Shown here in pieces: positions 2,316-45,261 of a DNA stretch of 54,530 nucleotides. This DNA is from an uncultured Clostridium sp. (GTDB taxonomy: Bacteria > Bacillota_I > Bacilli_A > RF39 > UBA660), in contig CAZOBH010000006.1 in assembly GCA_964578175.1 (NCBI GenBank), forward strand, positions 1 to 54,530, read 5' to 3'. The translations under genes were made by a program, and so were the position numbers. Each line of letters opens with the position of its first letter. Within the stretch, counting starts at the first letter, position 1. The notes beneath the pieces were generated by a model. That model was given only the letters and a program-made list of their open reading frames with translations. It did no database searches and had not been told where the DNA came from.

Positions 2316-5300
2316 ATGAAAGAATCAATATACAAGAAAACAATGGTTTTAATACCTTCAGCTTTTAATAGTAAAGCAATGGGTGATATAGAAAATTTTA
2401 TTATTTTTTATAAAGATATCTTTGATTTATATATTATATGGGATAAAAAGAGTGAAATTATAAATGGAGTAAAATATATATCAAAATTTGATTCAAAAGC
2501 ACAATATTTAATAACAACTGCAGATTACATTATTGATGCCGGTACTATTAATGGAACAACTAAGATTAATAATAACCAAACAAGAATTAGCGTCTGGCAT
2601 GGTACTCCTTATAAAAAAATGTTTGTGGATTTAGATCCTACTAATATAAGCGAAGCTTTAAAATATGATTACGGTGTTGATTTAATGATTTCTCCTTCAA
2701 AATTTTATACAGAAGAGTTTCTAAGAAAATCAATGTTATATGACGGAAAAATTTTAGAAACTGCAATTTCACGAACAGATAGTTTGTATATTACAGATGA
2801 AGAGAAGAGATTGTTAAAAAAATCATTTCATATTGATGAAAATAAGAAAATTTTATTATATGCACCAACATATAGGAATCCTGGAAAAGTAAGACTACAT
2901 TTTGATGCTGGTAAATTAAAAAAATCACTAGAAAAAGATGGTAGTGAATGGGTAATTGTAACAAAACTACATTATCTAAATAAATTAATAAATAAGAGAG
3001 ACGTTATAGATTGTACATCATATCCAAATATAAATAATCTTTTAGCTATATCGGATGTTGTAGTAACAGATTATTCTAGTTTATTTATAGACTATTCTAT
3101 CTTAGATAAACCGGTTATTTTTTATCAATATGATAAAAAAGATTATGATAGTGATAGAGGATTTATGTTCTCGTTAGAAAAATACGTTGATAAAAAGTAT
3201 ATTATAGAAAATGAAAATGAATTATATGAATTAGCATCAAAAATAGAAAAAAAGCCTAATTTAAAAAAAGTAAGAAGTGAGTTTTATCCTTATCAAAAAG
3301 AGAATTCTACAAAAGATTTGGTAAAAAAACTTGACTTAAATGCTGATTCTAGAAAAACAAAAGAGATTATTTTTCTTATAAATGAAGTAAATCAATTAGG
3401 CGGGGTAAATAATTTTGTTATGAATTTTTCTAGGTATTTCAAGAAAAATTATAATTCCAAAATTATAATTGTCGGAATCAAGGAATTTAATAAAAATAAT
3501 AATGAAAATTATATTTTAGATGAAGATAATTTAGTTGATATTAAAGTTTCCTATGAAAATCATCCAAAATTAGTTAAATCCATTTTAGAAAATACAGATG
3601 GTTATATAATAACATGTCAGTTTTCAGCACAAAAAAAATTCCAATCTTTCCTAAAAAATAAAAATGTATTTTTAATGTTCCATGGTAATGGATATGATTT
3701 TGTTAATAGAAATTATTATACGTGGCATTTAGATGCTATAAATAAGAAAAAATTATATAATTACAAGAAATTTTTATTATTAACTGAAGATTATTGTAAT
3801 GCTATTAAAGAAGCGGTTATCCCACAACTAAAAGATAGAATTGGGTATATAGAAAATTCTTATGATTTTAATAATAGAAAAAATTATTATAAGAAATCGA
3901 ATGAATTTGCAGTATTGTCTAGACTTGATGATGACAAGAATATTTTTGATATTATAAAAATATTTTCAAATAAAAATTTAGATGAAAATTTTAAAGTTCA
4001 TGTTTATGGTGATGGAAAATTAAAAGAAAAATTTATTGAGGAAATCAAAAGTAATAAATTAGAAAAAAAGGTAATAGTTCATGGATATGTAGAAGATAAA
4101 AATCAAATGTATAAAGATAAACAAGGACTAATAATGACAACTTTGAGTGAAGGCTTTGGCCTTATAATACTTGAAGCAGCTAGTTATGGAATACCTACTT
4201 ATATTTATGAGTCTGCAGTTGCAGTTAGAGAATTTAAAAAATCTAATGTAATAAATGTAGTTGAAACATCTAATATTGAGGATTATGTAAACAAACTTAA
4301 TAATCCTAAAAAGTTTAGAAAAGAAGATTTTGATAATATCGTATCAATGTTTTCAAATGAGAAGATTTTTGATAGATGGATTGATTTATTTAGTGAAATT
4401 GAAAATGAAAATTGTGTAAACCCTCATTTAAAACAAGTAATTAAAAAAAATATAAAGTCCTTTATTTCAAATATAAAAACAAGCCTAAAAACAAACATTA
4501 AAAAAATATTAAATAAAGACACGAAACAAAAAGATAGAAAGAATAGAATAAAAACATATTTAAAATATATTTATGATAGATATAAATACTATATATTTAA
4601 ACTAAAACGTTTAACAATTAATCGTTATAAAGAACCATTAGTATCTATAATTGTTCCATTTTATAATTGTAATGATACAATAGAAGCTTTGTTAAAATCT
4701 ATAAAAAAATCTGGATATAAAAATTATGAAGTCATAGTTATTAATGATGGTTCATCTGATGATCCAAGAGATATTATAAAAAAATATAAAAAAGTAAGAT
4801 ATTATTATAAGAAAAACGAGGGAGTAGGGTTAGCGAGAAATTATGGATTAGAAAAAATGAAAGGAAAATATTTTTGCTTTTTTGATGCAGATGACACTAT
4901 GTATAAGGGGGCTTTAAATTATTTAGTAGATTATGCAATAAAGAATAATTTACCATTAGTTGCTGGTCAAACTCAAAGAATTATATTGAGTACAAAAAAA
5001 AGATCTTATTGGTTTAGAAAAATTTACAAAAAAAATTATGTTAATAAAATGAGTGATAGAACTTTGCTATTAGATGATTCATTATCAACGAATAAATTAT
5101 ATGAAACTTCGGCTTATAAAAAGAGTGGAATAAAATTTGATTCTGGTTTATATGAAGATAAATTATTTAGTTTTGAATTATATTCATATTATGATAAAAT
5201 CGGAATTATTAATAATATAGTTTATAATTGGTTGGTTTATGGTAATAATTCAAGTATTACAACAATTGCATCATTTGATAATATAAAAGAAAGAATAAAG

Positions 5301-5697: not shown

Positions 5698-6831
5698 GTG
5701 AAAGAAATGGTATTTTTATTAACAATATATAAATACATTTTAAAATTTGTTTATTTCTTTTTAAAGTTATTACCAACTAGAAAAAAACAAATATTATTTC
5801 TTAGTAGACAAACTAATGAACCATCACTTGATTTTAAATATTTAATTGATGATATTCATAAAAGATATCCTGATTATAAAGTTATTGTTAAAACCAAAAG
5901 GTTAGAAAAAAATAATCCAATTCAAATAATTAGTTATTTATTTCATCCTTTTGCTCAAATGTATTATTTAGCTACTTCAAGTGTATGTGTTATTGATACT
6001 TTTATTATCCCAGTATCCTGCTTAAAACATAAAAAAAGTCTTAGAATTATTCAAATTTGGCATTCTTTGGCAGCTATTAAAAAGTTTGGATATCAAACAT
6101 TAAATACTGATAAAGATAAAAAAATAGCTAAAGTTATGTGTATGCATAAGAATTATGACGCAATTGTATCTGGATCAGATGAAATGACTAAACACTTTTC
6201 TAAAGCATTTAATTATCCAGAATCTAAATTTATTACTTGTGGTCTTCCTAGAATTGATTATTTGCTAGATACTGAAAAAGATAATAAGAAAAAAGTATAT
6301 AAAGAATATCCAGAACTTAAAAACAAAAAAATAGTTTTATATGTTCCTACTTTTAGAACTTATGATGAATATAAATTTGATGAAATTATAGATACTTATA
6401 AAGATTCTGATTATACTTTAATTATAAAAAAACATGAAAGATCTAAAGTAGATATAGATGAAAAGTATACTTATCCTAAAGTATCATCACTTGAATTATT
6501 GTCAGTTGCTGATTATGTAATAACTGATTATTCCGCAATAGCAGTTGAAGCATCAATTTTAAATAAACCATTATATTTATATATTTATGATTTGGATTTA
6601 TATAATAAATATGAAGGAGTAAATATTGATCTATATAAAGAATTACCTGGATATGTTTTTGATGATATTAAAGATATAAAAAAATCTATGGATAAAAATA
6701 ATTACGATATGAAGAAACTTGATAAATATAGAAAGAAATATGTTACTAATATAGATGGAACTTCAACTAAGAAACTTGTTGATTATATCATTGGAGGAAA
6801 ATATGAGTATAAAGAAAAAAATAAAAAGTAA
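5698..6831 (+). CDS. CDP-glycerol glycerophosphotransferase family protein (TagB/TagF-like)
   Basis: QIWHSLAAIKKFG, GLPRID, YVPTFR and TDYSA motifs; start is either GTG 5698 or ATG 5707. Confidence 0.85.
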   Translation: MKEMVFLLTIYKYILKFVYFFLKLLPTRKKQILFLSRQTNEPSLDFKYLIDDIHKRYPDYKVIVKTKRLEKNNPIQIISYLFHPFAQMYYLATSSVCVIDTFIIPVSCLKHKKSLRIIQIWHSLAAIKKFGYQTLNTDKDKKIAKVMCMHKNYDAIVSGSDEMTKHFSKAFNYPESKFITCGLPRIDYLLDTEKDNKKKVYKEYPELKNKKIVLYVPTFRTYDEYKFDEIIDTYKDSDYTLIIKKHERSKVDIDEKYTYPKVSSLELLSVADYVITDYSAIAVEASILNKPLYLYIYDLDLYNKYEGVNIDLYKELPGYVFDDIKDIKKSMDKNNYDMKKLDKYRKKYVTNIDGTSTKKLVDYIIGGKYEYKEKNKK

Positions 6832-8053
6832 AATAGTAGATATGACTAAGAAAAACGAAACTTTTAGAAAAGTAGTTAGAAAAGGAATATATGAAAAAAA
6901 TAGAGTTAAATATTTAAAATATAAGAATAAACCTATCGATGAAAAAAGAGTTTTATTTGAATCATTTATGGGAAGAAAATATGTAGATAGTCCTAAAGCT
7001 ATATATGAATATATGTTAAATAGTGAAGAGTATAAAGATTATAAATTCGTATGGTTCTTTAAAAATCCTGAAGAACATAAAAATGTTGCTGATAATCCTA
7101 GAACTAAAGTATATAAATATGGATCAGCTGATTATTATAGATTATATGCTACTAGTAAATATTGGATTACTAATAGTAGAGTACCAGATACTATTAGTAA
7201 AAGAAAAGGACAAGTCTATGTACAATGTTGGCATGGAACTCCTCTTAAGAAACTTGGATTTGATATAGAAGTTAAGGGAGGAAATGCAATGAACTCTCTT
7301 AAAGATATTAGATATAAATATGAAGTAGATTCAAAAAAATATACTTATATGGTTTCTCCATCTAGATTTTGTACAGAAAAGTATATATCTGCATTTAACT
7401 TAAAAGCAGTTGGTAAAGAAGACATTGTTATTGAACAAGGATATCCAAGAAATGACTTTTTAATTAATTATACCGAAAAAGATGTTAAAGATATTAAAAA
7501 GAAACTTAAATTACCAAAAGATAAAAAGATAATATTATATGCTCCAACTTGGAGAGATAATCAACATACATCAGGTGTTGGATATACTTATAAAACAGAA
7601 GTGGATTTTGATAAATTAAGAGAAAAACTAGAAGATGAATATATAATATTATTTAGAGCTCATTATTTTGTTGCTAATAGTTTTGATTTTGAAAAATATA
7701 AAGGATTTATCTATAACGTAAGTGATTACGATGATATTAATCATTTATATGTAATTAGTGATATATTAATAACAGATTATTCATCTGTATTCTTTGATTA
7801 TAGTATTTTAAAAAGACCAATATTATTCTATATGTATGATTTAGATGAATATCAACATAATCTTAGAGATTTCTATTTTGGACTTGATGAATTACCTGGA
7901 CCAATTGTTGAAAAAGAAGATGAATTAATTAAAGAAATTGAAAAAACTAAGAAATTTAAGTATGATAATAAATATAAAAAGTTTAATGAAAAGTTTACAT
8001 ATCTTGATGATGGAAAAGCATCTGAAAGGGTCGTTAAGGAAATATTTAAATAG
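6803..8053 (+). CDS. tagF: CDP-glycerol:poly(glycerophosphate) glycerophosphotransferase
   Basis: FESFMGRKYVDSPK, QCWHGTPLK, GYPRND, YAPTWRD, TDYSSVFFD and DDGKAS; GGAGG precedes ATG 6803 (track start 6755 is upstream). Confidence 0.88.
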   Translation: MSIKKKIKSKIVDMTKKNETFRKVVRKGIYEKNRVKYLKYKNKPIDEKRVLFESFMGRKYVDSPKAIYEYMLNSEEYKDYKFVWFFKNPEEHKNVADNPRTKVYKYGSADYYRLYATSKYWITNSRVPDTISKRKGQVYVQCWHGTPLKKLGFDIEVKGGNAMNSLKDIRYKYEVDSKKYTYMVSPSRFCTEKYISAFNLKAVGKEDIVIEQGYPRNDFLINYTEKDVKDIKKKLKLPKDKKIILYAPTWRDNQHTSGVGYTYKTEVDFDKLREKLEDEYIILFRAHYFVANSFDFEKYKGFIYNVSDYDDINHLYVISDILITDYSSVFFDYSILKRPILFYMYDLDEYQHNLRDFYFGLDELPGPIVEKEDELIKEIEKTKKFKYDNKYKKFNEKFTYLDDGKASERVVKEIFK

Positions 8054-8062
8054 GAGGTTTTT

Positions 8063-8566
8063 ATGAAAAGAATATTAACTTATGGAACTTATGATTTATT
8101 ACATTATGGTCATATTAGACTACTTAAAAGAGCTAAAGAAATGGGAGATTATTTAATAGTTGCTATTTCAACTGATGAATTTAATGCTATTAAAGGAAAG
8201 AAAGCGTATCATTCATATGAAACTAGAAAGAAAATGTTAGAAGCAATTAGATATGTTGATCTTGTTATTCCAGAAGAGACTTGGGAACAAAAAAGAGATG
8301 ATGTAATTAATTACAAAGTTGATTGTGTGGTTATGGGAAGTGACTGGGAAGGTAGTGAAAAATTTGAATGTCTAAGAGATTTATGTGATGTTCAATACTT
8401 ACCAAGAACAAAAGGTATATCTACATCTAAAATTAAAAAAGATTTAGGTTTAATGGAACCAAATAATAATCCAAAAGATAATGAATATCCTGAACCAACA
8501 GATGAAAAAGTAGAAACATATACTGGTGGTAGACAAAAAAAGTTAGGGGCTAGAAAAGGAAAGTAA
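8063..8566 (+). CDS. tagD: Glycerol-3-phosphate cytidylyltransferase
   Basis: TYGTYDLLHYGH (HxGH), MGSDW and RTKGISTS; roughly 35-aa C-terminal extension. Confidence 0.93.
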   Translation: MKRILTYGTYDLLHYGHIRLLKRAKEMGDYLIVAISTDEFNAIKGKKAYHSYETRKKMLEAIRYVDLVIPEETWEQKRDDVINYKVDCVVMGSDWEGSEKFECLRDLCDVQYLPRTKGISTSKIKKDLGLMEPNNNPKDNEYPEPTDEKVETYTGGRQKKLGARKGK

Positions 8567-8587: not shown

Positions 8588-9661
8588 ATGCGTAAATATG
8601 GATTAGATTTATTAAAAATTTATTCAATGTTTTTAATTGTTGTACTTCATTTTTGTGCATCAATTATAAGATATAACACTTTAAATCCAGCTAGTTTAAA
8701 ATCAGAAGTATATTATTTAATTTTTACAATTACATATTGTTGTGTTGATTGTTATGTATTAATTACTGGTTATTTTTATAAAAATAATACCGGTAAATTA
8801 AATAAATATTTAAAACTTTGGTTAATGGTATTCTTTTGGTCATCATTGTTAGGTTGTTTTGGATATTTCTCAGGGTATATTAATAAAAAAGAATTGTTTC
8901 AGTATTTCTTACCATTAACATATAATAAGTATTGGTATTTTACTGCTTATACAATTTTATATTTTACCTGTCCATACTTAAATAAGTTAATTGAGTCTTT
9001 AAATAGAAAAGAATTTAAAAGATTATTAATAATTGGATTAATATTCTTGTGTATTATTGATTTACCATTTGAAACATTTAGAATAGATAGAGGACTTCAT
9101 TTTAGTTGGCTTTTCTTTTTATATTTATTTGGTGCATATATTAGAATTTATGAACCTATGAAAAATATAAAGAATATTAATTTAATAAAAATATCTATTT
9201 TTTGTATAGGATCAGCTTTTCTATCTAAATACTTAATTGATTATATAGCTAAATATCAATTAACTATTGCAAATACTATTTTCTTAGATAGAAATAATTC
9301 AATATTTATAGTTATTTATGCTTTATGTATGTTTGAATTATTTAAAAGAATTAGAATAAATAAAAAGATTATAAGTAATATCATACTTACCGTTTCTAAA
9401 ACTACTTTTGGAATATTCTTAATACATTATAATTACGTTATTTTGAGTATGTTCTTAAGAGAAAAACTATGGTATGTATATAAAGAAAGAATTCTATATA
9501 GTTTAGAAGATACATTATTCTTTTGTATATTAATATTTATTATTTGTATGATACTTGAATATATTAGACAAAAACTGTTTAAACTATTTAAGATAGATAA
9601 TTTAGTAGATAAATTTGTAGATAAAATTAAATCTATAAAAGTACTTGTTTTGACAAATTGA
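8588..9661 (+). CDS. Acyltransferase-3 family membrane O-acyltransferase
   Basis: DLLKIYSMFLIVVLH, VDCYVLITGYF, YWYFTAY and TFGIFLIH; multiple TM segments. Confidence 0.85.
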   Translation: MRKYGLDLLKIYSMFLIVVLHFCASIIRYNTLNPASLKSEVYYLIFTITYCCVDCYVLITGYFYKNNTGKLNKYLKLWLMVFFWSSLLGCFGYFSGYINKKELFQYFLPLTYNKYWYFTAYTILYFTCPYLNKLIESLNRKEFKRLLIIGLIFLCIIDLPFETFRIDRGLHFSWLFFLYLFGAYIRIYEPMKNIKNINLIKISIFCIGSAFLSKYLIDYIAKYQLTIANTIFLDRNNSIFIVIYALCMFELFKRIRINKKIISNIILTVSKTTFGIFLIHYNYVILSMFLREKLWYVYKERILYSLEDTLFFCILIFIICMILEYIRQKLFKLFKIDNLVDKFVDKIKSIKVLVLTN

Positions 9662-9678
9662 TATTTTTTTGATATTAT
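9650..9678 (+). promoter_or_regulatory. Sigma-A promoter for the Arg-leader operon
   Basis: TTGACA (9650-9655), 17-nt spacer, TATTAT (9673-9678). Confidence 0.75.
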
Positions 9679-9702
9679 TAGACCACTTGAAAGGAAAAGG
9701 AT

Positions 9703-9762
9703 ATGAGTAATATAGTTAATACAATAGCTAGAAGACGTAGAACTCATACACTTGTGAAATAG
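9703..9762 (+). CDS. Leader peptide 1 (MSNIVNTIARRRRTHTLVK)
   Basis: AAGGAAAAGG upstream; four consecutive Arg codons AGA AGA CGT AGA at 9730-9741. Confidence 0.75.
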   Translation: MSNIVNTIARRRRTHTLVK

Positions 9763-9826
9763 TATTTATACTAGGACACAGGTGATTTAATGGTGCTTGT
9801 GTCTTATAGTTGTTATATAAATAAAT

Positions 9827-9861
9827 AACCTATGTGATATAAGCACATAGGTTTTTGTTTT
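9827..9861 (+). terminator. Attenuator terminator after leader 1
   Basis: AACCTATGTG-ATATAAG-CACATAGGTT perfect 10-bp stem followed by TTTGTTTT. Confidence 0.8.
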
Positions 9862-9871
9862 GGAGGTAACT

Positions 9872-9913
9872 ATGGAAAATATTTTAATTATAAGACGAAG
9901 ATTATTACGGTAA
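9872..9913 (+). CDS. Leader peptide 2 (MENILIIRRRLLR)
   Basis: GGAGG at 9862-9866; Arg codons AGA CGA AGA and a final CGG. Confidence 0.75.
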   Translation: MENILIIRRRLLR

Positions 9914-10009
9914 CTTGTACTTTTATTAGTACAAGTATTTTGACATGCCTGTACTAATCCTAGAAATTGTTTATTAGTACAGGTTAATAGATAATTTTTA
10001 GGAGGATAT
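9913..10009 (+). promoter_or_regulatory. Alternative hairpins, including an SD-sequestering stem (translational attenuator)
   Basis: 9913-9920:9929-9936; 9925-9933:9950-9958; 9948-9958:9973-9983; 9958-9977:9984-10003, the last covering part of the AGGAGG RBS. Confidence 0.65.
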
Positions 10010-11062
10010 ATGAAAGAAGAAATAATAAAAACATTAAAAGATTTATTAAGTTTTAAAACTTATAAAGATAATAAATTAGAATTTGATAAATTATTTAATT
10101 ATATAAAAAAAGAATATAAAAGTTTAAATATAGAAGAATATGTATTTGATAATAAAAAGTGTTTAGTACTTAGTAATAGTAAGTCTCATGATTTAGATAT
10201 AATATTTTGTTGTCATATAGATGTTGTATATGCAGATGATTATAGTATTAAAGAAGATAATGATAATCTATATGGAAGAGGAACTATCGATATGAAAGGT
10301 AGTACTGCAGTGTGTCTTAATATTATGAAAAATCTAAATACTGATAAAAAAATAGCATTATTTATTACAAGTGATGAAGAAGTAGATGGTTATACTGCTT
10401 CATGTCTTGTTAAAGAATATAATAGTAAGTTTGCAATAGTACCAGATGGAGGATCTAATTTTGAACTTATTAGTGAAGAAAAAGGATTAATGCAATTAAA
10501 ACTTAGTGTTAATACTAAATCATGTCATGCAGCTCAATTATTTAATGGAGAAAACGCTATTGTTAAACTATTTGATGTTTATAAAAAAATAATAGAGAAG
10601 TATCCATTACCTAAATCAAGTAATGATTATATTACTAGTATTAATTTATCTAAATTAAATGGAGGAACATCTAATAATCAAGTTCCTGGTTATGCTGAAA
10701 TGATCTTAGATATTAGAAATATTAAATCAGATAGTTTAGATAAAATATTTAAATTTATTAAAAATATAGATAAAGATGTAAAAGTAGAAACAATTATAAT
10801 TGGACCTACTTTTAGTACTAATTTAAATAATAAGTATGTAAAACAATATATTAGCTCTTGTGAAAAAATACTAAATAAAGATATTAAAATAATTGGATGT
10901 GAATCAACTAGTGATGCTATTTTCTTTAGTGAGAAGAATATACCTACTGTTATTATGAATCCTTGTGGATATTATGCCCATTCTCCACAAGAATATGTCA
11001 ATAAAAATAGTTTATTAGATTTATATAATATTTATTATGATTTTATTAAGGAGTTTAAATAA
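10010..11062 (+). CDS. M20 family metallohydrolase (ArgE/DapE-like)
   Basis: CHIDVV, GRGTIDMKG, DEE, HAA, SDA and HSPQE metal-ligand motifs. Confidence 0.88.
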   Translation: MKEEIIKTLKDLLSFKTYKDNKLEFDKLFNYIKKEYKSLNIEEYVFDNKKCLVLSNSKSHDLDIIFCCHIDVVYADDYSIKEDNDNLYGRGTIDMKGSTAVCLNIMKNLNTDKKIALFITSDEEVDGYTASCLVKEYNSKFAIVPDGGSNFELISEEKGLMQLKLSVNTKSCHAAQLFNGENAIVKLFDVYKKIIEKYPLPKSSNDYITSINLSKLNGGTSNNQVPGYAEMILDIRNIKSDSLDKIFKFIKNIDKDVKVETIIIGPTFSTNLNNKYVKQYISSCEKILNKDIKIIGCESTSDAIFFSEKNIPTVIMNPCGYYAHSPQEYVNKNSLLDLYNIYYDFIKEFK

Positions 11063-11814
11063 TGGAAGCTCTTAATAAAAAAACAGTAAATATCGATTTA
11101 AACTATTTATATTATAGAGCAATATTTTTAGACGATTCAGAGTTTAGAGTATGGAAAAAATTAGAAAATGGTTGTTCTATTGCAACTATGGGTTATTCTG
11201 AAGAAAATGTTTTAGTACTTATGAAATTATTAGAGTCTTTTGCCGAACAATACGGAGAAGAAATAACTTATGAATCAGCAAGTGATGAATTAAAATTATA
11301 TCAAGATAATGGTAAATTATTTATTTATCTTGATGAAAATAATAATCCAGTATCTATGAATGGAGTTACTTATAATGAAGATAATATTAGCGTAGGTTTT
11401 GGAAGTTCTGATGATAGAGATATTTCATCTTTATATTTTTATGGATTATCAACAGTTCATGAATATAGGGGGAAAGGTGCTTGTAGAACATTGATTGATT
11501 TCGCTATTCAATATGCTTATTACAATAATTTTGATTTAGTATATGCAAGAACTGATTTAATTAATTCTAATTCCGAATGGATTATGCAAAACGCTGGTTT
11601 AGAAGTATGTAAAAATGATAATGATATTATAGCTGAATGGGTACCTGTAACTGAGTCTAAAGGTGATTATAGACTTCATATGTGGTTACCTTTAAAAGAA
11701 GATATTTATATATATCCAAAGGAAGATGCAATTATGGCTGATGGTATTACAAGAGAAATAAAAGTTAAAAAAGATAAAGTAAAAAAGAAGGATTTTGTTT
11801 ATGAAGAAATTTAA
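11062..11814 (+). CDS. GNAT family N-acetyltransferase
   Basis: Motif A STVHEYRGKGACRTLI and N..S..IMQNAG; translationally coupled to the upstream gene. Confidence 0.75.
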   Translation: MEALNKKTVNIDLNYLYYRAIFLDDSEFRVWKKLENGCSIATMGYSEENVLVLMKLLESFAEQYGEEITYESASDELKLYQDNGKLFIYLDENNNPVSMNGVTYNEDNISVGFGSSDDRDISSLYFYGLSTVHEYRGKGACRTLIDFAIQYAYYNNFDLVYARTDLINSNSEWIMQNAGLEVCKNDNDIIAEWVPVTESKGDYRLHMWLPLKEDIYIYPKEDAIMADGITREIKVKKDKVKKKDFVYEEI

Positions 11815-12529
11815 AATTAATGATGAAGTATTTGATATTTTAGGAGATATATCAGTAGGTGTATTAGTTCTTAAAAATGTTAATGAGAATAAAAAGTTAA
11901 GTGATATAGAATCAAAAGAAATAAAAGAGTTACTTGAAAATAGTAATAATTATTCTAAAAAGTATTTAACAAGTGATGTTATATCTGAAAATGATGTTGT
12001 TAAAGTATGGAGAGAAATATATCAAAAGTTTCCGACTAAAAAAGGAGTTCGTTGTTCTTTAGAAAATTTACTTAAAAGAGTATTACATGATAATCCAGTT
12101 GGAAGTATTTTACCATCTATAGATATTACTAATTCTATTTCCTTAAAATATGCTTTACCAATAGGTGCAGAAGATTTAGATAAAATAGATGGTGATTTGT
12201 TTTTAGGAGTTATGGAAGGATCTGAACATTTTCTACCTATTGGAAGTGAAGAAGAAGATAAACCATTAAAAGGTGAAATAGCATATTGTGATAATTATGG
12301 AGTTGTATGTAGATGTCTTAATTGGAGAGATGGAGTAAGAACTGAAATAACAGATGATACAACGTTAGAATTTATCGCAATGGAATGTGTTGAAAAAGAT
12401 AAACTTGATGATCTAAATAATGCTCTTCTAGAACTAGCTAATTTGATGAGTAAATACTTAGATTGTGAAGTAGTATTGAAAACAATAGTTGATAAAAATA
12501 ATAAAGAAGTTGTTTTAATTGAAGGATAG
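11801..12529 (+). CDS. Stand-alone B3/4 (PheRS-beta editing-like) domain protein
   Basis: WREIY..F.TKKGVRCSLENLLKR, DITNSISLKYALPIGAEDLDKIDG and CRCLNWR are typical of the family; ATG 11801 follows AAGAAGGA. Confidence 0.85.
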   Translation: MKKFKINDEVFDILGDISVGVLVLKNVNENKKLSDIESKEIKELLENSNNYSKKYLTSDVISENDVVKVWREIYQKFPTKKGVRCSLENLLKRVLHDNPVGSILPSIDITNSISLKYALPIGAEDLDKIDGDLFLGVMEGSEHFLPIGSEEEDKPLKGEIAYCDNYGVVCRCLNWRDGVRTEITDDTTLEFIAMECVEKDKLDDLNNALLELANLMSKYLDCEVVLKTIVDKNNKEVVLIEG

Positions 12530-12550
12530 TTTAAATATCCTTTTTTTTAT
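12522..12550 (+). terminator. Intrinsic terminator (copy 1 of a direct repeat)
   Basis: AAGGATA-GTTTAAA-TATCCTT plus T-run. Confidence 0.75.
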
Positions 12551-12619
12551 AATTTACATTAATAATATTTGTTTAGTATACTTTAATTGAAAAAATAAGT
12601 ATATGAAGGAGTGTTATTA

Positions 12620-13498
12620 ATGGAAGAAGTATCACAAGAATTTTTAGACTTTTTTTGTGTAAGATTAGATCAAATACCAATTCAGGGAAATATAGGTGAT
12701 TGTTTACATTGGGAATTTAATTCAAGCAAATCTCCTTCACTAAATGAAAGTGAATTTATTTATTATGAGGGAACCATTAATTTTACATATAATGGTGTAA
12801 CTTATATAAGTCGTGATGGAGACGATGTTAGAGCATATTTAAGTAGTAAAGGATTTAAGGATTGTAAACATGGTAAAAGAGCAGATACAATTTTAGCAGC
12901 TTGGTATAGTATTACTAGTACGATGATTTATAAATATCATGTTGATGATCCTGTTTTTAGAAAATATGCAGCTATTGCTCTTCCCCATCACCTAAGTCCT
13001 ACTTTAACTAGTAAAAATATTGGAAGAACAGATGAAGAAATACATAGAACTATTGAAAGAGTTAGAGAAGAAGAAGCTATTTTTTCTGATGATGCTAGTA
13101 AGTGGTTAGAAAGTGAATGGGGAAAATATTTACAAGTTGAAAGAGATAGATTATTATTTGATGTTGCTGTTAATCATATGCAATCTAGCTTAGATAGATT
13201 AGGTTATGGTAATGTACATTTAAAGACTGATGATATTAGTATTGAAGCTAGAGAGAGAATAATTAATTATTGGCTAAAATCTAATGGAATTGATGAGCAA
13301 TATAGTTTATCTGGTCCATATAAAGATCTGATAAATGGTAAGAATTTTGATAATAACAATCCGATTATTATTGATACTGAATATGAACAAAATCCTTTAA
13401 TGAGACCCAAACCAATTGCTATATCTGTAGATGAAGTTGTTAATGCTTTGGATAGTTTAATTAACTCTAAAAATAATACGAATAAAATGAAAATATAA
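12620..13498 (+). CDS. Hypothetical protein (orphan)
   Basis: GAAGGAG RBS before ATG 12620; about 292 aa; no motif recognised. Confidence 0.7.
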   Translation: MEEVSQEFLDFFCVRLDQIPIQGNIGDCLHWEFNSSKSPSLNESEFIYYEGTINFTYNGVTYISRDGDDVRAYLSSKGFKDCKHGKRADTILAAWYSITSTMIYKYHVDDPVFRKYAAIALPHHLSPTLTSKNIGRTDEEIHRTIERVREEEAIFSDDASKWLESEWGKYLQVERDRLLFDVAVNHMQSSLDRLGYGNVHLKTDDISIEARERIINYWLKSNGIDEQYSLSGPYKDLINGKNFDNNNPIIIDTEYEQNPLMRPKPIAISVDEVVNALDSLINSKNNTNKMKI

Positions 13499-13518: not shown

Positions 13519-13546
13519 AAGGATAGATTAAATATCCTTTTTTTAT
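13519..13546 (+). terminator. Intrinsic terminator (copy 2 of a direct repeat)
   Basis: AAGGATA-GATTAAA-TATCCTT plus T-run; nearly identical to 12522-12550. Confidence 0.75.
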
Positions 13547-13591
13547 TTATAAAAAAAGCGTATACTAATTATGAGAGTTATAGGTGAGAAT

Positions 13592-15082
13592 ATGAAAAAC
13601 AACATAGTTGAATATTTGGATGAAGTTATAAAAAATAATCCAAGAAAAAATATTTTTATTGAAAAGAATAGAAAGATTACTTATAAAGAATTTGGTAATC
13701 AATCTAAAAAAATAGCATCTAATATTTTAGATAAATATGATTTAAAAAATAAACCAATTGCTATATTTATAGATAAATCTATTAATTGTTTATTATCTAT
13801 GTTTGGTACATTATATAGTAGAAATTTTTATTGTGTAATAGATGTTAATTCACCCAAGAATAGAATAGATACTATTATTAATACTTTAGAACCTAGTTTG
13901 ATTATTACTGATAATAAGAATATAGATAAAATTAAAAATTATTCTTATTCTATAAATATATTAAATATAGATGAACTAGATGATATTAAGTTTTCTAATT
14001 TTAAAATTAATTATTGCCTTACAGATCCAGCATATGTTTTATTTACTAGTGGATCTACTGGAGTACCTAAAGGTAGTGTAATACTTGAGAGTTCTTTAAT
14101 TAGTTATATAGATTGGTTTAAAGAAGAATTTAATATTAATAAAGAAACTGTTTTTGGTAGTCAAACGCCATTTTATTTTAGTATGTCAGTATCTGATATT
14201 TTTGCAACTGTTGTTAGTGGAGCGACATTTGTAATAATACCTAAAGTTAATTTTTCATTTCCTTTAAAACTTATAGAATTTTTAAATGAATATAAAATAA
14301 ATACTATTTATTGGGTCCCATCAGCACTAGCAATAGTAGCTAATTTAAAAACATTTGATTATATAAAACCAAAGTATTTAGAAAAAGTATTATTTGCAGG
14401 TGAAGTTATGCCAATGCCTGTACTAAATATTTGGAGAAAACATTTACCAAAATGTTTATATGCAAACTTGTTTGGACCTACAGAAACAACTGATATATTT
14501 GCTTTCTATAAAGTTAATAGAAAGTTTAAAGACAATGAAACATTACCTATGGGAGTTCCTTGTAAAAATGTAGATATTATTATGATTGATTCTGATAATA
14601 AAGAATCAAATGAAGGAGAAATATATGTAAGGAGTCCTTTTGTAGGAAACGGATATTATAATAATAAAGAAAAAACAGATGTTAGTTTCATTCAAAATCC
14701 TACTCATAATAATTATATAGATATAGTTTATAAAACAGGAGATCTTGGTAAATATAATAAATATGGAGAAATAGAATATCTTGGTAGAAAAGACTTTCAA
14801 ATTAAACATATGGGATATAGAATAGAACTTGGTGAAATTGAAAGTAATATTAATTCTTTAGATGGAATAAATATTTGTGCTTGTATTTATCAAGATGATA
14901 AGATAATACTATATTATGAATCAAATAATCTAGATGATGATGATGTAGTAGATTTTTCTAATAAACATTTACTAAATTATATGAGACCTAATGTTATTAA
15001 AAAGATTATTAAAATGCCATATAATGCAAATGGTAAAATAGATAGAGTTAAATTAAAAGAAATGTATAAAGAAGGAGAATAG
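13592..15082 (+). CDS. Stand-alone adenylation domain, DltA-like
   Basis: YVLFTSGSTGVPKG, NLFGPTETT, YKTGDLG, GRKDFQIKHMGYRIELGEIE and NGKIDR; GGTGAG before ATG 13592. Confidence 0.9.
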   Translation: MKNNIVEYLDEVIKNNPRKNIFIEKNRKITYKEFGNQSKKIASNILDKYDLKNKPIAIFIDKSINCLLSMFGTLYSRNFYCVIDVNSPKNRIDTIINTLEPSLIITDNKNIDKIKNYSYSINILNIDELDDIKFSNFKINYCLTDPAYVLFTSGSTGVPKGSVILESSLISYIDWFKEEFNINKETVFGSQTPFYFSMSVSDIFATVVSGATFVIIPKVNFSFPLKLIEFLNEYKINTIYWVPSALAIVANLKTFDYIKPKYLEKVLFAGEVMPMPVLNIWRKHLPKCLYANLFGPTETTDIFAFYKVNRKFKDNETLPMGVPCKNVDIIMIDSDNKESNEGEIYVRSPFVGNGYYNNKEKTDVSFIQNPTHNNYIDIVYKTGDLGKYNKYGEIEYLGRKDFQIKHMGYRIELGEIESNINSLDGINICACIYQDDKIILYYESNNLDDDDVVDFSNKHLLNYMRPNVIKKIIKMPYNANGKIDRVKLKEMYKEGE

Positions 15083-15084
15083 AT

Positions 15085-15306
15085 ATGAAAGAAATAATTG
15101 AAATTTTAAATGAAGTTAAACCAGGAGAAGATTATGAACATGAAGAAGAATTAGTTAGTAATGGAATATTAACATCTTTTGATATAGTAACTTTAATATC
15201 TTTATTAAATACTAAATTTGATATATCAATTACAGTTACTGATTTAGTTCCTGAAAACTTTGAATCAGCAAAAACTATAAAAGAATTAGTTGATAGATTA
15301 AAATAA
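15085..15306 (+). CDS. Acyl/aminoacyl carrier protein (DltC-like)
   Basis: 73-aa acidic protein with GILTSFDIV (phosphopantetheine Ser) and PENF. Confidence 0.85.
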   Translation: MKEIIEILNEVKPGEDYEHEEELVSNGILTSFDIVTLISLLNTKFDISITVTDLVPENFESAKTIKELVDRLK

Positions 15307-15325
15307 TTAGAAACTGGTGGGAGAT

Positions 15326-16813
15326 ATGAATTATACGTCATTAAACTTTTTACTATTTATATCAGTAATAGTACTTATATATTATTTGTTCCCTAAAAAG
15401 TATAGATGGACTGTATTACTAGTAAGTAGTATTATTTGTTATTACTTAATGAGTGGTTGGTTATTACTTTTTGTTATACTTGGAACACTTATATCTTATA
15501 TAGGTGCTAAAATATTAGAAAAAGAGAAGAAAAGAAAAAAGAAAATATTTATATTAACTCTTATATTAGTATTAGGATTCTTACTTGTACTTAAATATAA
15601 TAATTTTATTAGTTCTTTATTAAATCCTATTTTAAACTTAGTTAATTTAAATATTCCATTTAAGAAGTTTATATTACCGGTAGGTATATCTTACTATACA
15701 TTAGAGATGATATCTTATATATCTGATGTATATTTAAAAAAGATAAAAGCAGAAAAGAACTTTTTTAAATTATTAACATTCTTTACTTATTTTCCAAAAG
15801 TATTAGAAGGACCAATTTCTAAATATAGGGAAATATCTAAAGATATGTTTTCTATTCATAAATTCAATTATGATAGTTTTAGAAAAGCTTGGATATTAAT
15901 TGGAATAGGATTTATAAAAAAATTAGTTATAGCTGATAGAGCTGGAATATTTGTTAATAATTTCTTTAGTGATGGACACACTGGTCTTTTAACTATAGTT
16001 GCAGTCATTATGTATACGATCCAATTATATTTTGATTTTAGTGGATGTATAGATATTATTTCAGGAGTATCTGAATTATTTGGAATTAAGTTACCTGAAA
16101 ACTTTAGACAACCATTCTTTAGTAAATCAATTGAAGAGTTTTGGAGAAGATGGCATATTACTTTAGGTCTTTGGTTAAAAGAATATATATTCTTTCCAAT
16201 ATCATTATCTAAAATGAATATGAATTTAAATAAGAAAATGAGAAATGTTAAATTCAAACATTTATCTAGGTTTATAATAATAGCTTTCCCATTATTCTTT
16301 GTTTGGTTCTTTAATGGTTTATGGCATGGACCTACAATAAAATATGTATTATATGGATTATATTATTATATATTGATGATGTTAGGAGTGTTATTTAAAC
16401 CTATTTTAGATAAACTTGTTAAATTATTAAGAATTAATACTAAAGTGTTTAGTTATAGATTATTTCAAATATTAAGAACAACAATAATAGTATGTTTTGG
16501 AATGCTTATATTTAGAACTGAAACTATACCTGAAGTATTTGAAATAATTAAAAATATTAAAATAAGTGACCCAGTTAATTTCTTTGATTTAGGAATTAAC
16601 ATAAAAGAATTTGTACCTTTCTTAATATCATTATTTGCAATGTTCTTTATTAGTTTAGCTAAAGAGTTAAAAATAAATGTAAGAGAAAAATTAGAAGAAC
16701 AAAATCTAGTATTTAGATGGTGTGTATATTGGATAATAATATTTACAGTTATAATATTTGGTGTATACGGAAAAGGTTATGATGCAGCTAGTTTTATCTA
16801 TGGAGGCTTCTAA
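15326..16813 (+). CDS. MBOAT family O-acyltransferase (DltB/AlgI-like)
   Basis: LPVGISYYT, FDFSGC, ENFRQPFFS, EFWRRWHITL and LWHG. Confidence 0.92.
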   Translation: MNYTSLNFLLFISVIVLIYYLFPKKYRWTVLLVSSIICYYLMSGWLLLFVILGTLISYIGAKILEKEKKRKKKIFILTLILVLGFLLVLKYNNFISSLLNPILNLVNLNIPFKKFILPVGISYYTLEMISYISDVYLKKIKAEKNFFKLLTFFTYFPKVLEGPISKYREISKDMFSIHKFNYDSFRKAWILIGIGFIKKLVIADRAGIFVNNFFSDGHTGLLTIVAVIMYTIQLYFDFSGCIDIISGVSELFGIKLPENFRQPFFSKSIEEFWRRWHITLGLWLKEYIFFPISLSKMNMNLNKKMRNVKFKHLSRFIIIAFPLFFVWFFNGLWHGPTIKYVLYGLYYYILMMLGVLFKPILDKLVKLLRINTKVFSYRLFQILRTTIIVCFGMLIFRTETIPEVFEIIKNIKISDPVNFFDLGINIKEFVPFLISLFAMFFISLAKELKINVREKLEEQNLVFRWCVYWIIIFTVIIFGVYGKGYDAASFIYGGF

Positions 16814-45184: not shown

Positions 45185-45261
45185 GTCTCGTTAGCTCAGC
45201 TGGATAGAGCACCGCCCTTCTAAGGCGGGTGTCGAGAGTTCGAATCTCCCACGGGACACCA
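45185..45261 (+). tRNA. tRNA-Arg(TCT)
   Basis: GTCTCGT...ACGGGAC-A-CCA; anticodon arm CCGCC-CT-TCT-AA-GGCGG; GTTCGAAT. Confidence 0.93.

Follow-up and report, generated by a model that had tools for sequence, protein, structure and literature searches.

The stretch of DNA analysed here (the window, 54,530 nucleotides (nt) from an uncultured Clostridium sp., G+C content 25.9%) carries a leader of an unusual kind ahead of a three-gene operon, which encodes an M20 metallohydrolase, a GNAT-fold N-acetyltransferase and a homologue of the tRNA deacylase CtdA. With a probability of roughly 0.7, we consider this leader to be a transcription attenuator of the ribosome-mediated, leader-peptide type that is keyed to arginine codons. 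Downstream of a promoter (9650-9678), its first part (module 1, 9703-9861) comprises a short upstream open reading frame (uORF) with a run of arginine codons, a series of mutually exclusive RNA helices and an intrinsic terminator, while a second part (module 2, 9872-10003) lies between that terminator and the first gene; the promoter, leader elements and operon features are all on the forward strand. Judged by sequence comparison, the leader belongs to a conserved family with over 35 distinct members, which are found in uncultured Bacilli of the gut such as Candidatus Coprovivens and Clostridium sp. CAG:1193.

Module 1 and its predicted switch

An earlier note on this DNA had described a promoter TTGACA-17-TATTAT, two uORFs with ribosome-binding sites and arginine runs (9703-9762 and 9872-9913) and mutually exclusive pairings in module 1, and all of these were found again. 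The sigma-70-type promoter (9650-9678), with its −35 TTGACA at 9650-9655, a 17-nt spacer and a TG-extended −10 TATTAT at 9673-9678, matches the consensus at 11 of 12 positions and is the top-scoring site of a scan of the region; in homologous loci a TTGACA promoter lies at an equal distance upstream of the uORF. The first leader peptide, MSNIVNTIARRRRTHTLVK, is encoded by uORF1 (9703-9762), which has a Shine-Dalgarno (SD) sequence, AAGGAAAAGGA, at 9691-9701, a putative regulatory run AGA AGA CGT AGA at 9730-9741 and a TAG stop codon at 9760-9762.

The 3′ end of uORF1 contains segment A (CACTTGTG, 9749-9756), whose partner is the 3′ half of segment B (GGACACAGGTG, 9774-9784), and B has segment C (9793-9809) as its alternative partner. 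Paired with B, segment C would act as an anti-antiterminator, and paired with segment D (9830-9846, which takes in the 5′ arm of the terminator, its loop and the first part of its 3′ arm) as an antiterminator. The intrinsic terminator itself (9827-9861) has a 10-bp stem formed by 9827-9836 and 9844-9853, and its hairpin (9827-9853) is followed by TTTTGTTTT, with the T-run at 9854-9861. When we folded the window leader with RNAfold, the three competing helices were all recovered (9749-9756 with 9777-9784, 9773-9783 with 9795-9805, and 9793-9803 with 9836-9846), and the A:B helix was extended by an inner hairpin, TAGTA-TTTA-TACTA (9760-9773), which holds the stop codon of uORF1. Equivalent hairpins of different sequence also span the uORF stop codon in other leaders. 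The 341-nt leader as a whole folds with a z of −6.3 against dinucleotide shuffles, none of 100 shuffles being as stable.

We propose that, after transcription from the promoter at 9650-9678, a ribosome would translate uORF1 and that its position would decide the fold. When charged tRNA-Arg is plentiful, the ribosome would clear the run of AGA and CGN codons, reach the stop codon and cover A, whereupon B would pair with C, D would be left free and the terminator (9827-9853 with its T-run) would form, which is the OFF state. When arginine is decoded slowly, the ribosome, which we infer to stall at the arginine codons, would be held on the run upstream of A, allowing A:B and then C:D to form; the latter would engage the terminator's 5′ arm and loop, so that RNA polymerase would read through into the operon, which is the ON state. 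An untranslated leader is likewise predicted to be ON through read-through, and it is the terminating ribosome that would act as the repressor.

Conservation of the leader

The same logic, in which a stall gives ON and full translation gives OFF, had been put forward in the earlier note for its first stage, and homologous leaders were to be examined for conserved arginine-run uORFs and covarying stems. We found both, together with a footprint geometry consistent with the predicted switch in 35 of 35 leaders. A search with an M20 alignment against one genome per species gave 25 orthologous loci with 53-70% identity, the conserved core of which consists of the M20 and GNAT genes in either order. 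An SD-bearing uORF with an arginine run precedes the genes in 25 of the 25, whichever gene comes first (five are GNAT-first), and is placed 160-300 nt upstream of the first gene. Metagenome contigs were also scanned with a pattern made only of segments B and C and the terminator, the uORF being left out. The scan listed at least 120 rows, most of which are chance matches, and its figures are lower bounds; taking as true those matches that also have the terminator palindrome, at least 18 among the matches listed, we found an RRR-type uORF in every one of them, although the pattern did not contain it. The scan is an independent check of the association between uORF and structure.

All leaders share five pairing segments that can form A:B, B:C, C:D and D:E, the last of these being the terminator helix, to which E contributes the 3′ arm. 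A occupies the 3′ end of the uORF or follows it closely. For covariation we used a MAFFT alignment of 29 leaders and a covariance model built from module 1 (R1), which gave 47 matches, 37 of them distinct. In the MAFFT alignment, 93.8% of the B:C and terminator pairs were formed and 12 of 21 pairs had changed on both sides; none of 500 shuffles equalled this, a count that is not to be read as a probability because the leader sequences are related and the alignments are partly structure-fitted. The covariance-model alignment, which favours its own structure, showed 94.2% pairing and compensatory changes in 14 of 21 pairs. The terminator helix alone was 97.8% paired, with compensatory changes in 7 of its 10 pairs, whereas pairing fell to 23-55% in controls with slid partners. 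For A:B, 85% of cells were paired, and one pair of columns (34/70) contained UA 14 times, UG 6 times and CG 4 times; moreover, one position of B, occupied by A or G, covaries with both of its partners, in A and in C.

The register of C:D differs between subgroups (the loop is TACAAGC in one and GCAGATAC in another), and this helix was therefore assessed by duplex energy. Cognate C and D segments had a mean of −9.8 kcal/mol compared with −7.2 kcal/mol for non-cognate combinations, a difference in which 0 of 5000 permutations reached the cognate mean, and C:D against shuffled D gave a mean z of −3.2. When the fold was started just past the arginine run (alignment column 18, upstream of A) and ended at the terminator loop, A:B and C:D formed together in 26 of 29 leaders; when segment A was removed, B:C and the terminator formed in 29 of 29. 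The positions of the ribosome agree with these two folds. Assuming that the footprint of the ribosome reaches about 12 nt beyond the first base of the A-site codon in the downstream direction, we found across 35 leaders that a ribosome on the first arginine codon masks 0% of A in all 35 and one on the last arginine codon 17% on average, while at the stop codon A is masked by 87% on average and fully (100%) in 25 of the 35.

Could the hairpins belong instead to a protein- or RNA-dependent attenuator, or simply to the terminator of the upstream gene, with the uORFs being incidental? In the full-length RNA, the B:C hairpin and the terminator are each stable unaided, and after the upstream acyltransferase gene, whose end is at 9661, there is no terminator other than that at 9827-9861. 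Against this, a promoter lies between the upstream gene and the uORF, and the leader stays with M20/GNAT or CtdA-like genes although different neighbours precede it: a tRNA-Leu gene in locus L003, an opposite-strand DUF285 gene in L200, a Mur ligase gene in L202 and an opposite-strand Fic gene in L203. The uORF, its SD, the arginine run and the stop codon's position relative to A and B are all conserved through synonymous and length variation. Nor did a known RNA family account for the structure: with Rfam 15 at gathering thresholds the whole window yielded three tRNAs only, and no leader, T-box or guanidine riboswitch family, while at E values up to 10 the region 9500-10150 gave only chance-level microRNA, small RNA and small nucleolar RNA matches (E 0.24-8). 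We give this explanation hardly any credence and retain the translated uORF as the probable sensor.

Three further features of individual loci were recorded. In the GNAT-first loci, two or three tandem terminator-like hairpins with T-runs come after the leader (L013:4200-4290 and the matching region of L014-L017). In L137, a typical arginine-run leader (MKIFMTNIIRRRRLRRHLRTR, at 1544-1690 on the minus strand, with ORFs downstream) precedes a 298-amino-acid Gln/Glu-rich ORF without a Pfam family and then a second ORF of no known kind, with no M20 or GNAT gene; the locus may have been rearranged, or the leader may regulate a third kind of gene here. Finally, in L134:176-315, on a contig with a coverage of 1.5, the uORF frame is lost, and a stop and then a GNAT fragment come after the M20 start, so that the locus is either decayed or an assembly artefact.

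Regulated genes, arginine codons and the likely signal

The genes of the operon overlap or abut. Gene 1 (10010-11062) encodes an M20 metallohydrolase of the ArgE/DapE N-acyl-amino-acid deacylase family, and gene 2 (11062-11814) a GNAT-fold N-acetyltransferase of a narrow, lineage-specific family, whose AlphaFold2 model has a predicted local distance difference test score of 91.7. Gene 3 (11795-12529, its start probably being the ATG at 11801) encodes a standalone B3/4-domain protein (PF03483, E 1.4e-21) and matches the CtdA structures in the PDB (9f7e at E 1.4e-21 and 9mkl at E 1.9e-20). CtdA strips canavanine, a plant mimic of arginine, from tRNA-Arg (PMC10018355). The pocket of Salmonella enterica CtdA is formed by N105, G116, E118, C166, Q173 and I189 (PMC12449066), and gene 3 retains N105, G116, E118 and the strictly conserved C166, but has an Asp for Q173; its product is likely a proofreader of canavanyl-tRNA(Arg). 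The operon ends with a terminator-like hairpin, AAGGATA-N7-TATCCTT plus a T-run (12522-12548), read directly from the sequence since its stem, with fewer than three G-C pairs, was missed by the terminator scan. The earlier note had not gone into the content of the operon, which is a deacylase, a GNAT and a CtdA-like tRNA-Arg deacylase and not arginine biosynthesis; the likely physiological meaning of the leader changes as a result.

The association with CtdA-like genes extends to other loci, the genes behind the leader having been listed non-exhaustively in the metagenomes. In L175/L177, a leader with the uORF MYTNITNNLRRRFSNTSVE lies directly upstream of a lone CtdA-like gene, 72% identical to gene 3 of the window; the order M20-GNAT-B3_4 behind an arginine-run leader recurs in L203 and, as gene order alone, on the P0002 contig. 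In other loci, B3_4 genes without this leader adjoin genes of arginine metabolism. L208 has a T-box (887-1071, 105 bits) followed by argH, the argininosuccinate lyase gene (1111-2487), and a B3_4 gene (2501-3226). Reading back from the lower helix gives AGA (Arg) as the specifier of this T-box, with AAG (Lys) as the alternative, and we regard it as a probable Arg T-box. In L204:1-3223, a B3_4 gene lies 75 nt downstream of arginine deiminase (ADI) pathway genes, which encode an ADI/ornithine carbamoyltransferase (OTCase) product, a carbamate kinase and a DcuC-family transporter. The model R1 found no match directly upstream of the B3_4 genes in L204-L208, where the gaps are 13-131 nt. A B3_4 homologue also comes after a RelA/SpoT-family gene in L205/L206.

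Comparison of 29 unique leader peptides, 11-24 residues long, showed that the arginine run is their only conserved part. Its length is 2-5, lysine never occurs in it and the flanking residues vary. The arginine codons of these peptides are AGA (57), CGN (66) and AGG (5), which puts the share of CGN at 52% compared with a background of 8-17%. In the window, the long ORFs use CGN for 8% of their arginine codons, lack CGC and contain RRR 0 times in 15,619 codons, which bears out the remark in the earlier note that CGN codons are unusual in this DNA. A tRNA-Arg(UCU) gene, which decodes the AGA codons of the leader, is present at 45185-45261, and no tRNA for CGN codons was found in the window.

The most likely signal, which like the substrates of the enzymes we infer from these comparisons, is the charging of tRNA-Arg. 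It is suggested by the fact that only arginine is tolerated in the run in genomes rich in lysine codons, by the position of the leader ahead of CtdA-like genes (L175/L177, L203), by the probable Arg T-box that controls argH and B3_4 in L208 and by the B3_4 gene that follows the deiminase genes in L204. Since CGN codons are interleaved with AGA, two isoacceptors would be sampled. What is sensed would be a shortage of usable aminoacyl-tRNA-Arg, brought about by arginine starvation or by an antimetabolite such as canavanine, which would compete for arginyl-tRNA synthetase, yield a labile canavanyl-tRNA and so lower the usable aminoacyl-tRNA; canavanyl-tRNA is indeed chemically labile (PMC12449066). 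The leader would respond to arginine shortage and plausibly to canavanine too.

The earlier note had kept in reserve a drug-sensing leader, in which a macrolide or ketolide stalls the ribosome on RRR as a +x+ (R/K-x-R/K) motif, as in erm or ABC-F leaders. RRR and RRRR formally fit such an arrest motif, a likeness to erm and ABC-F attenuators lies in the alternative hairpins, which include a terminator or an SD-hiding stem, and a GNAT could in principle modify a drug. But lysine would serve equally in a motif of this type and is never found in the run of the 29 unique leaders, despite genomes of about 26% G+C that favour lysine codons. No methyltransferase, ABC-F or efflux gene, and no other resistance gene, follows; the regulon includes instead a tRNA-Arg deacylase homologue, relatives of which adjoin arginine metabolism genes, once behind the probable Arg T-box. 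In addition, the stalled ribosome of an erm-type leader sits on segment 1, whereas here it would be upstream of segment A. A drug-sensing leader is accordingly disfavoured and in our view very improbable.

It is somewhat easier to imagine an arrest peptide that senses a metabolite, where an Arg-rich nascent chain and, in the exit tunnel, free arginine, ornithine, canavanine or a polyamine would jointly halt the ribosome, so that induction follows an excess of the metabolite, as with SpeFL, TnaC and the fungal arginine attenuator peptide (AAP). A stall on the run would give ON whatever its cause, and polybasic runs intrinsically slow ribosomes. The RRRRTH of uORF1 is also loosely like the HIRRxxH motif of SpeFL. 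Known sensing peptides are conserved over their full length, however, while here the arginine run alone is conserved, with a length of 2-5 and free flanks. The Thr-Leu that recurs after the run is accounted for by segment A (ACACTTG), which encodes that stretch. The rare CGN codons among AGA point to selection on decoding and not on the peptide, and the probable Arg T-box on a homologous gene in L208 points to tRNA charging. We consider an arrest peptide unlikely and favour slow decoding at the arginine codons.

A more specific reading is that the leader acts as an antimetabolite alarm. Canavanine or another arginine mimic would be sensed through decoding of the mixed AGA/CGN run and not by binding, and a three-part defence would be induced, in which the GNAT acetylates the mimic, the M20 enzyme is its companion deacylase and the CtdA-like protein proofreads mischarged tRNA-Arg. 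Elsewhere, ctdA and a canavanine-acetylating GNAT are controlled by guanidine riboswitches, and canavanine was argued to be hard to sense directly, being so like arginine (PMC10018355, PMC10416765). We offer this reading tentatively, as a possibility to which we would give clearly less than even odds.

Several observations weigh against the attenuator or against its link with arginine mimics. The minimum-energy fold of the full-length RNA combines A:B with the terminator in most leaders; the choice of fold would therefore have to be made co-transcriptionally, as in classical attenuators. The footprint geometry depends on the assumed +12-nt edge, and in the short-uORF subgroup L013-L017 a terminating ribosome masks just 33-78% of A. 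The regulated genes are not those of arginine biosynthesis, and no arg operon was found after the leader. The product of gene 2 had no match in a sequence search against all solved protein chains at E values up to 1, and the structures that Foldseek placed nearest to its model belong to generic small-molecule GNATs, among them SpeG and, as enzymes acting on antimetabolites, the phosphinothricin, arsinothricin and methionine-sulfoximine acetyltransferases; on both counts we rejected it as a relative of the canavanine-acetylating LcGNAT. Gene 3 has an Asp at the position of Q173, and I189 aligns with an Ala beside an Ile. The active CtdA of Clostridium perfringens has a Glu at the Q173 position (PMC12449066), and the Asp may be tolerated.

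Downstream of the operon, the ORF at 12611-13498 was considered as a further member and rejected, the hairpin at 12522-12548 intervening. It has no Pfam or NCBIfam family and is unrelated to the ORF that comes after B3_4 in L203; because it lacks a family match and is not conserved there, it may be an inserted cassette. Two near-identical terminator-like hairpins, 12522-12548 and 13519-13546 (AAGGATAG-T/A-TTAAATATCCTTTTTTT), bracket it. Further along (13571-16813) is a dlt-like set consisting of an adenylating enzyme, a carrier protein and a 498-amino-acid MBOAT protein. These score well under the equivalog cut-offs for DltA, DltC and DltB (for instance 264 bits compared with 560 for DltA), and their load may therefore be other than D-alanine. 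The set adjoins TagF-like and TagD teichoic acid genes (5698-8566).

A second module ahead of gene 1

Directly past the T-run of the terminator, an SD (GGAGG, 9862-9866) precedes uORF2 (9872-9913), which encodes MENILIIRRRLLR with the codons AGA CGA AGA ... CGG. The putative switch that follows (9913-10003) consists of A′ (9913-9921), B′ (9926-9936), C′ (9948-9958) and D′ (9973-9983), and RNAfold recovered the helices A′:B′, B′:C′ and C′:D′ (11 bp) as well as a 20-bp stem, 9958-9977 with 9984-10003, that covers AGGA of the SD of gene 1 (10000-10005). The helices proposed in the earlier note, including a stem of about 20 bp that hides part of AGGAGG, are thus present. The model R1 gave a weak full-length match here (24.9 bits, E 0.03), and module 2 looks like a diverged duplicate of module 1 in which the terminator was turned into an SD-hiding stem. 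As such, the stem over the SD of gene 1 may add a second, kinetic check at the level of translation.

The energies and the distribution of module 2 are less favourable. Its ON fold, A′:B′ with C′:D′ (−23.9 kcal/mol), is 6.5 kcal/mol less stable than A′:B′ with the SD stem (−30.4 kcal/mol), and C′:D′ belongs to the best fold only before the 3′ arm of the SD stem has been transcribed; the ON state is therefore possible only as a kinetic trap. A homologous module 2 occurs in L103, as a near-identical copy of that in the window, and in L011, with compensatory changes in C′:D′ and the SD stem. A pattern search for the full module over all fetched loci gave L011 and L103 only, that is, two lineages (window/L103 and L011), and in L011 the uORF continues through A′ and B′, so that the geometry of the module is not conserved. 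A second uORF with rare CGG or CGA codons at the same position is found in the window, L203, L011, L007 and L175/L177, but in L203, L175 and L007 the region of this uORF folds with no more stability than shuffled sequences do. Of the two-stage attenuator that the earlier note had envisaged, the first stage is strongly supported by the family comparisons, while the second, as a translational attenuator, is plausible but weaker. Full tandem duplicates, each copy with its own arginine-run uORF and terminator, are present in L020/L131 and in L090, and from these sequences it would follow that sensors in series are recurrent in the family and that the translational version is a local variant.

Relation to known attenuators and riboswitches

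Leader-peptide attenuation is textbook knowledge in Proteobacteria, where it serves Trp, His, Leu, Thr, Phe and Ile/Val; Bacillota are believed to depend on T-boxes and on ArgR/AhrC. Like the trp, his, leu, thr and pheA leaders of Proteobacteria, the leader described here combines an SD-bearing short uORF, a run of codons for one amino acid, exclusive hairpins and an intrinsic terminator, with the position of the ribosome as the predicted deciding factor. Its five-segment cascade resembles the layout of the his leader, which has six segments. It differs from trp and his in that arginine would be sensed, in its occurrence in AT-rich uncultured gut Bacilli, in its five segments and in a ribosome-free state that would give read-through and not super-attenuation; the stalled ribosome would also be upstream of A and not on it, while the terminating ribosome masks A. 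Unlike amino-acid leaders in general, it regulates genes that do not form a biosynthetic pathway, and it matches no Rfam leader model. This wiring, with five segments, predicted read-through without translation and a terminating ribosome as the putative repressor, is unusual.

Our literature search, whose coverage was incomplete, gave no description of an arginine-run leader acting on an intrinsic terminator, which amounts to no more than absence of evidence. Closest among published cases is orf34 of Salmonella speF, encoding SpeFL, where a uORF with consecutive arginine codons also precedes an arginine-/ornithine-related gene and pausing refolds the mRNA (PMC6386406). There, two arginine codons lie in a conserved 34-codon peptide, and Rho termination, SD unmasking and RNase G sensitivity are involved (PMC6386406). 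The present leaders have a run of 2-5 arginines in a short, variable peptide and what we take to be an intrinsic-terminator switch, with no sequence similarity to speF.

As for the regulated genes, guanidine-I and -IV riboswitches control the same kinds, CtdA and GNAT, in gut and rhizosphere bacteria exposed to canavanine (PMC10018355, PMC10416765). Those riboswitches sense guanidine or hydroxyguanidine, an indirect indicator, whereas the leader would read the decoding of arginine directly. The family connects the decoding of arginine with a homologue of canavanyl-tRNA(Arg) deacylase, an enzyme of recent discovery, and thereby offers a directly testable answer to a question raised in the CtdA literature, namely how cells sense a compound as arginine-like as canavanine. 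If the alarm reading is true, translational quality control would here be shown for the first time to be governed by a leader-peptide attenuator, which would also be a second, independent solution, beside guanidine riboswitches, for sensing an arginine look-alike. Arg T-boxes share the response to the charging of tRNA-Arg, and the T-box of L208 stands ahead of argH and a CtdA-like gene; a T-box, however, binds uncharged tRNA directly and without a uORF. No T-box match was found in the window.

Module 2 has its own counterparts. As in the translational attenuation of erm genes, it hides an SD within a stem whose opening could be brought about by an upstream uORF; unlike in erm, no resistance gene follows and the ON fold is thermodynamically disfavoured. 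With tandem riboswitches it shares the arrangement of two sensors in series. In contrast to known tandem riboswitch or attenuator arrangements, the second sensor here appears to be a duplicate of the first with another expression platform, as if an attenuator had been duplicated and the platform of one copy changed from a terminator to an SD-hiding stem.

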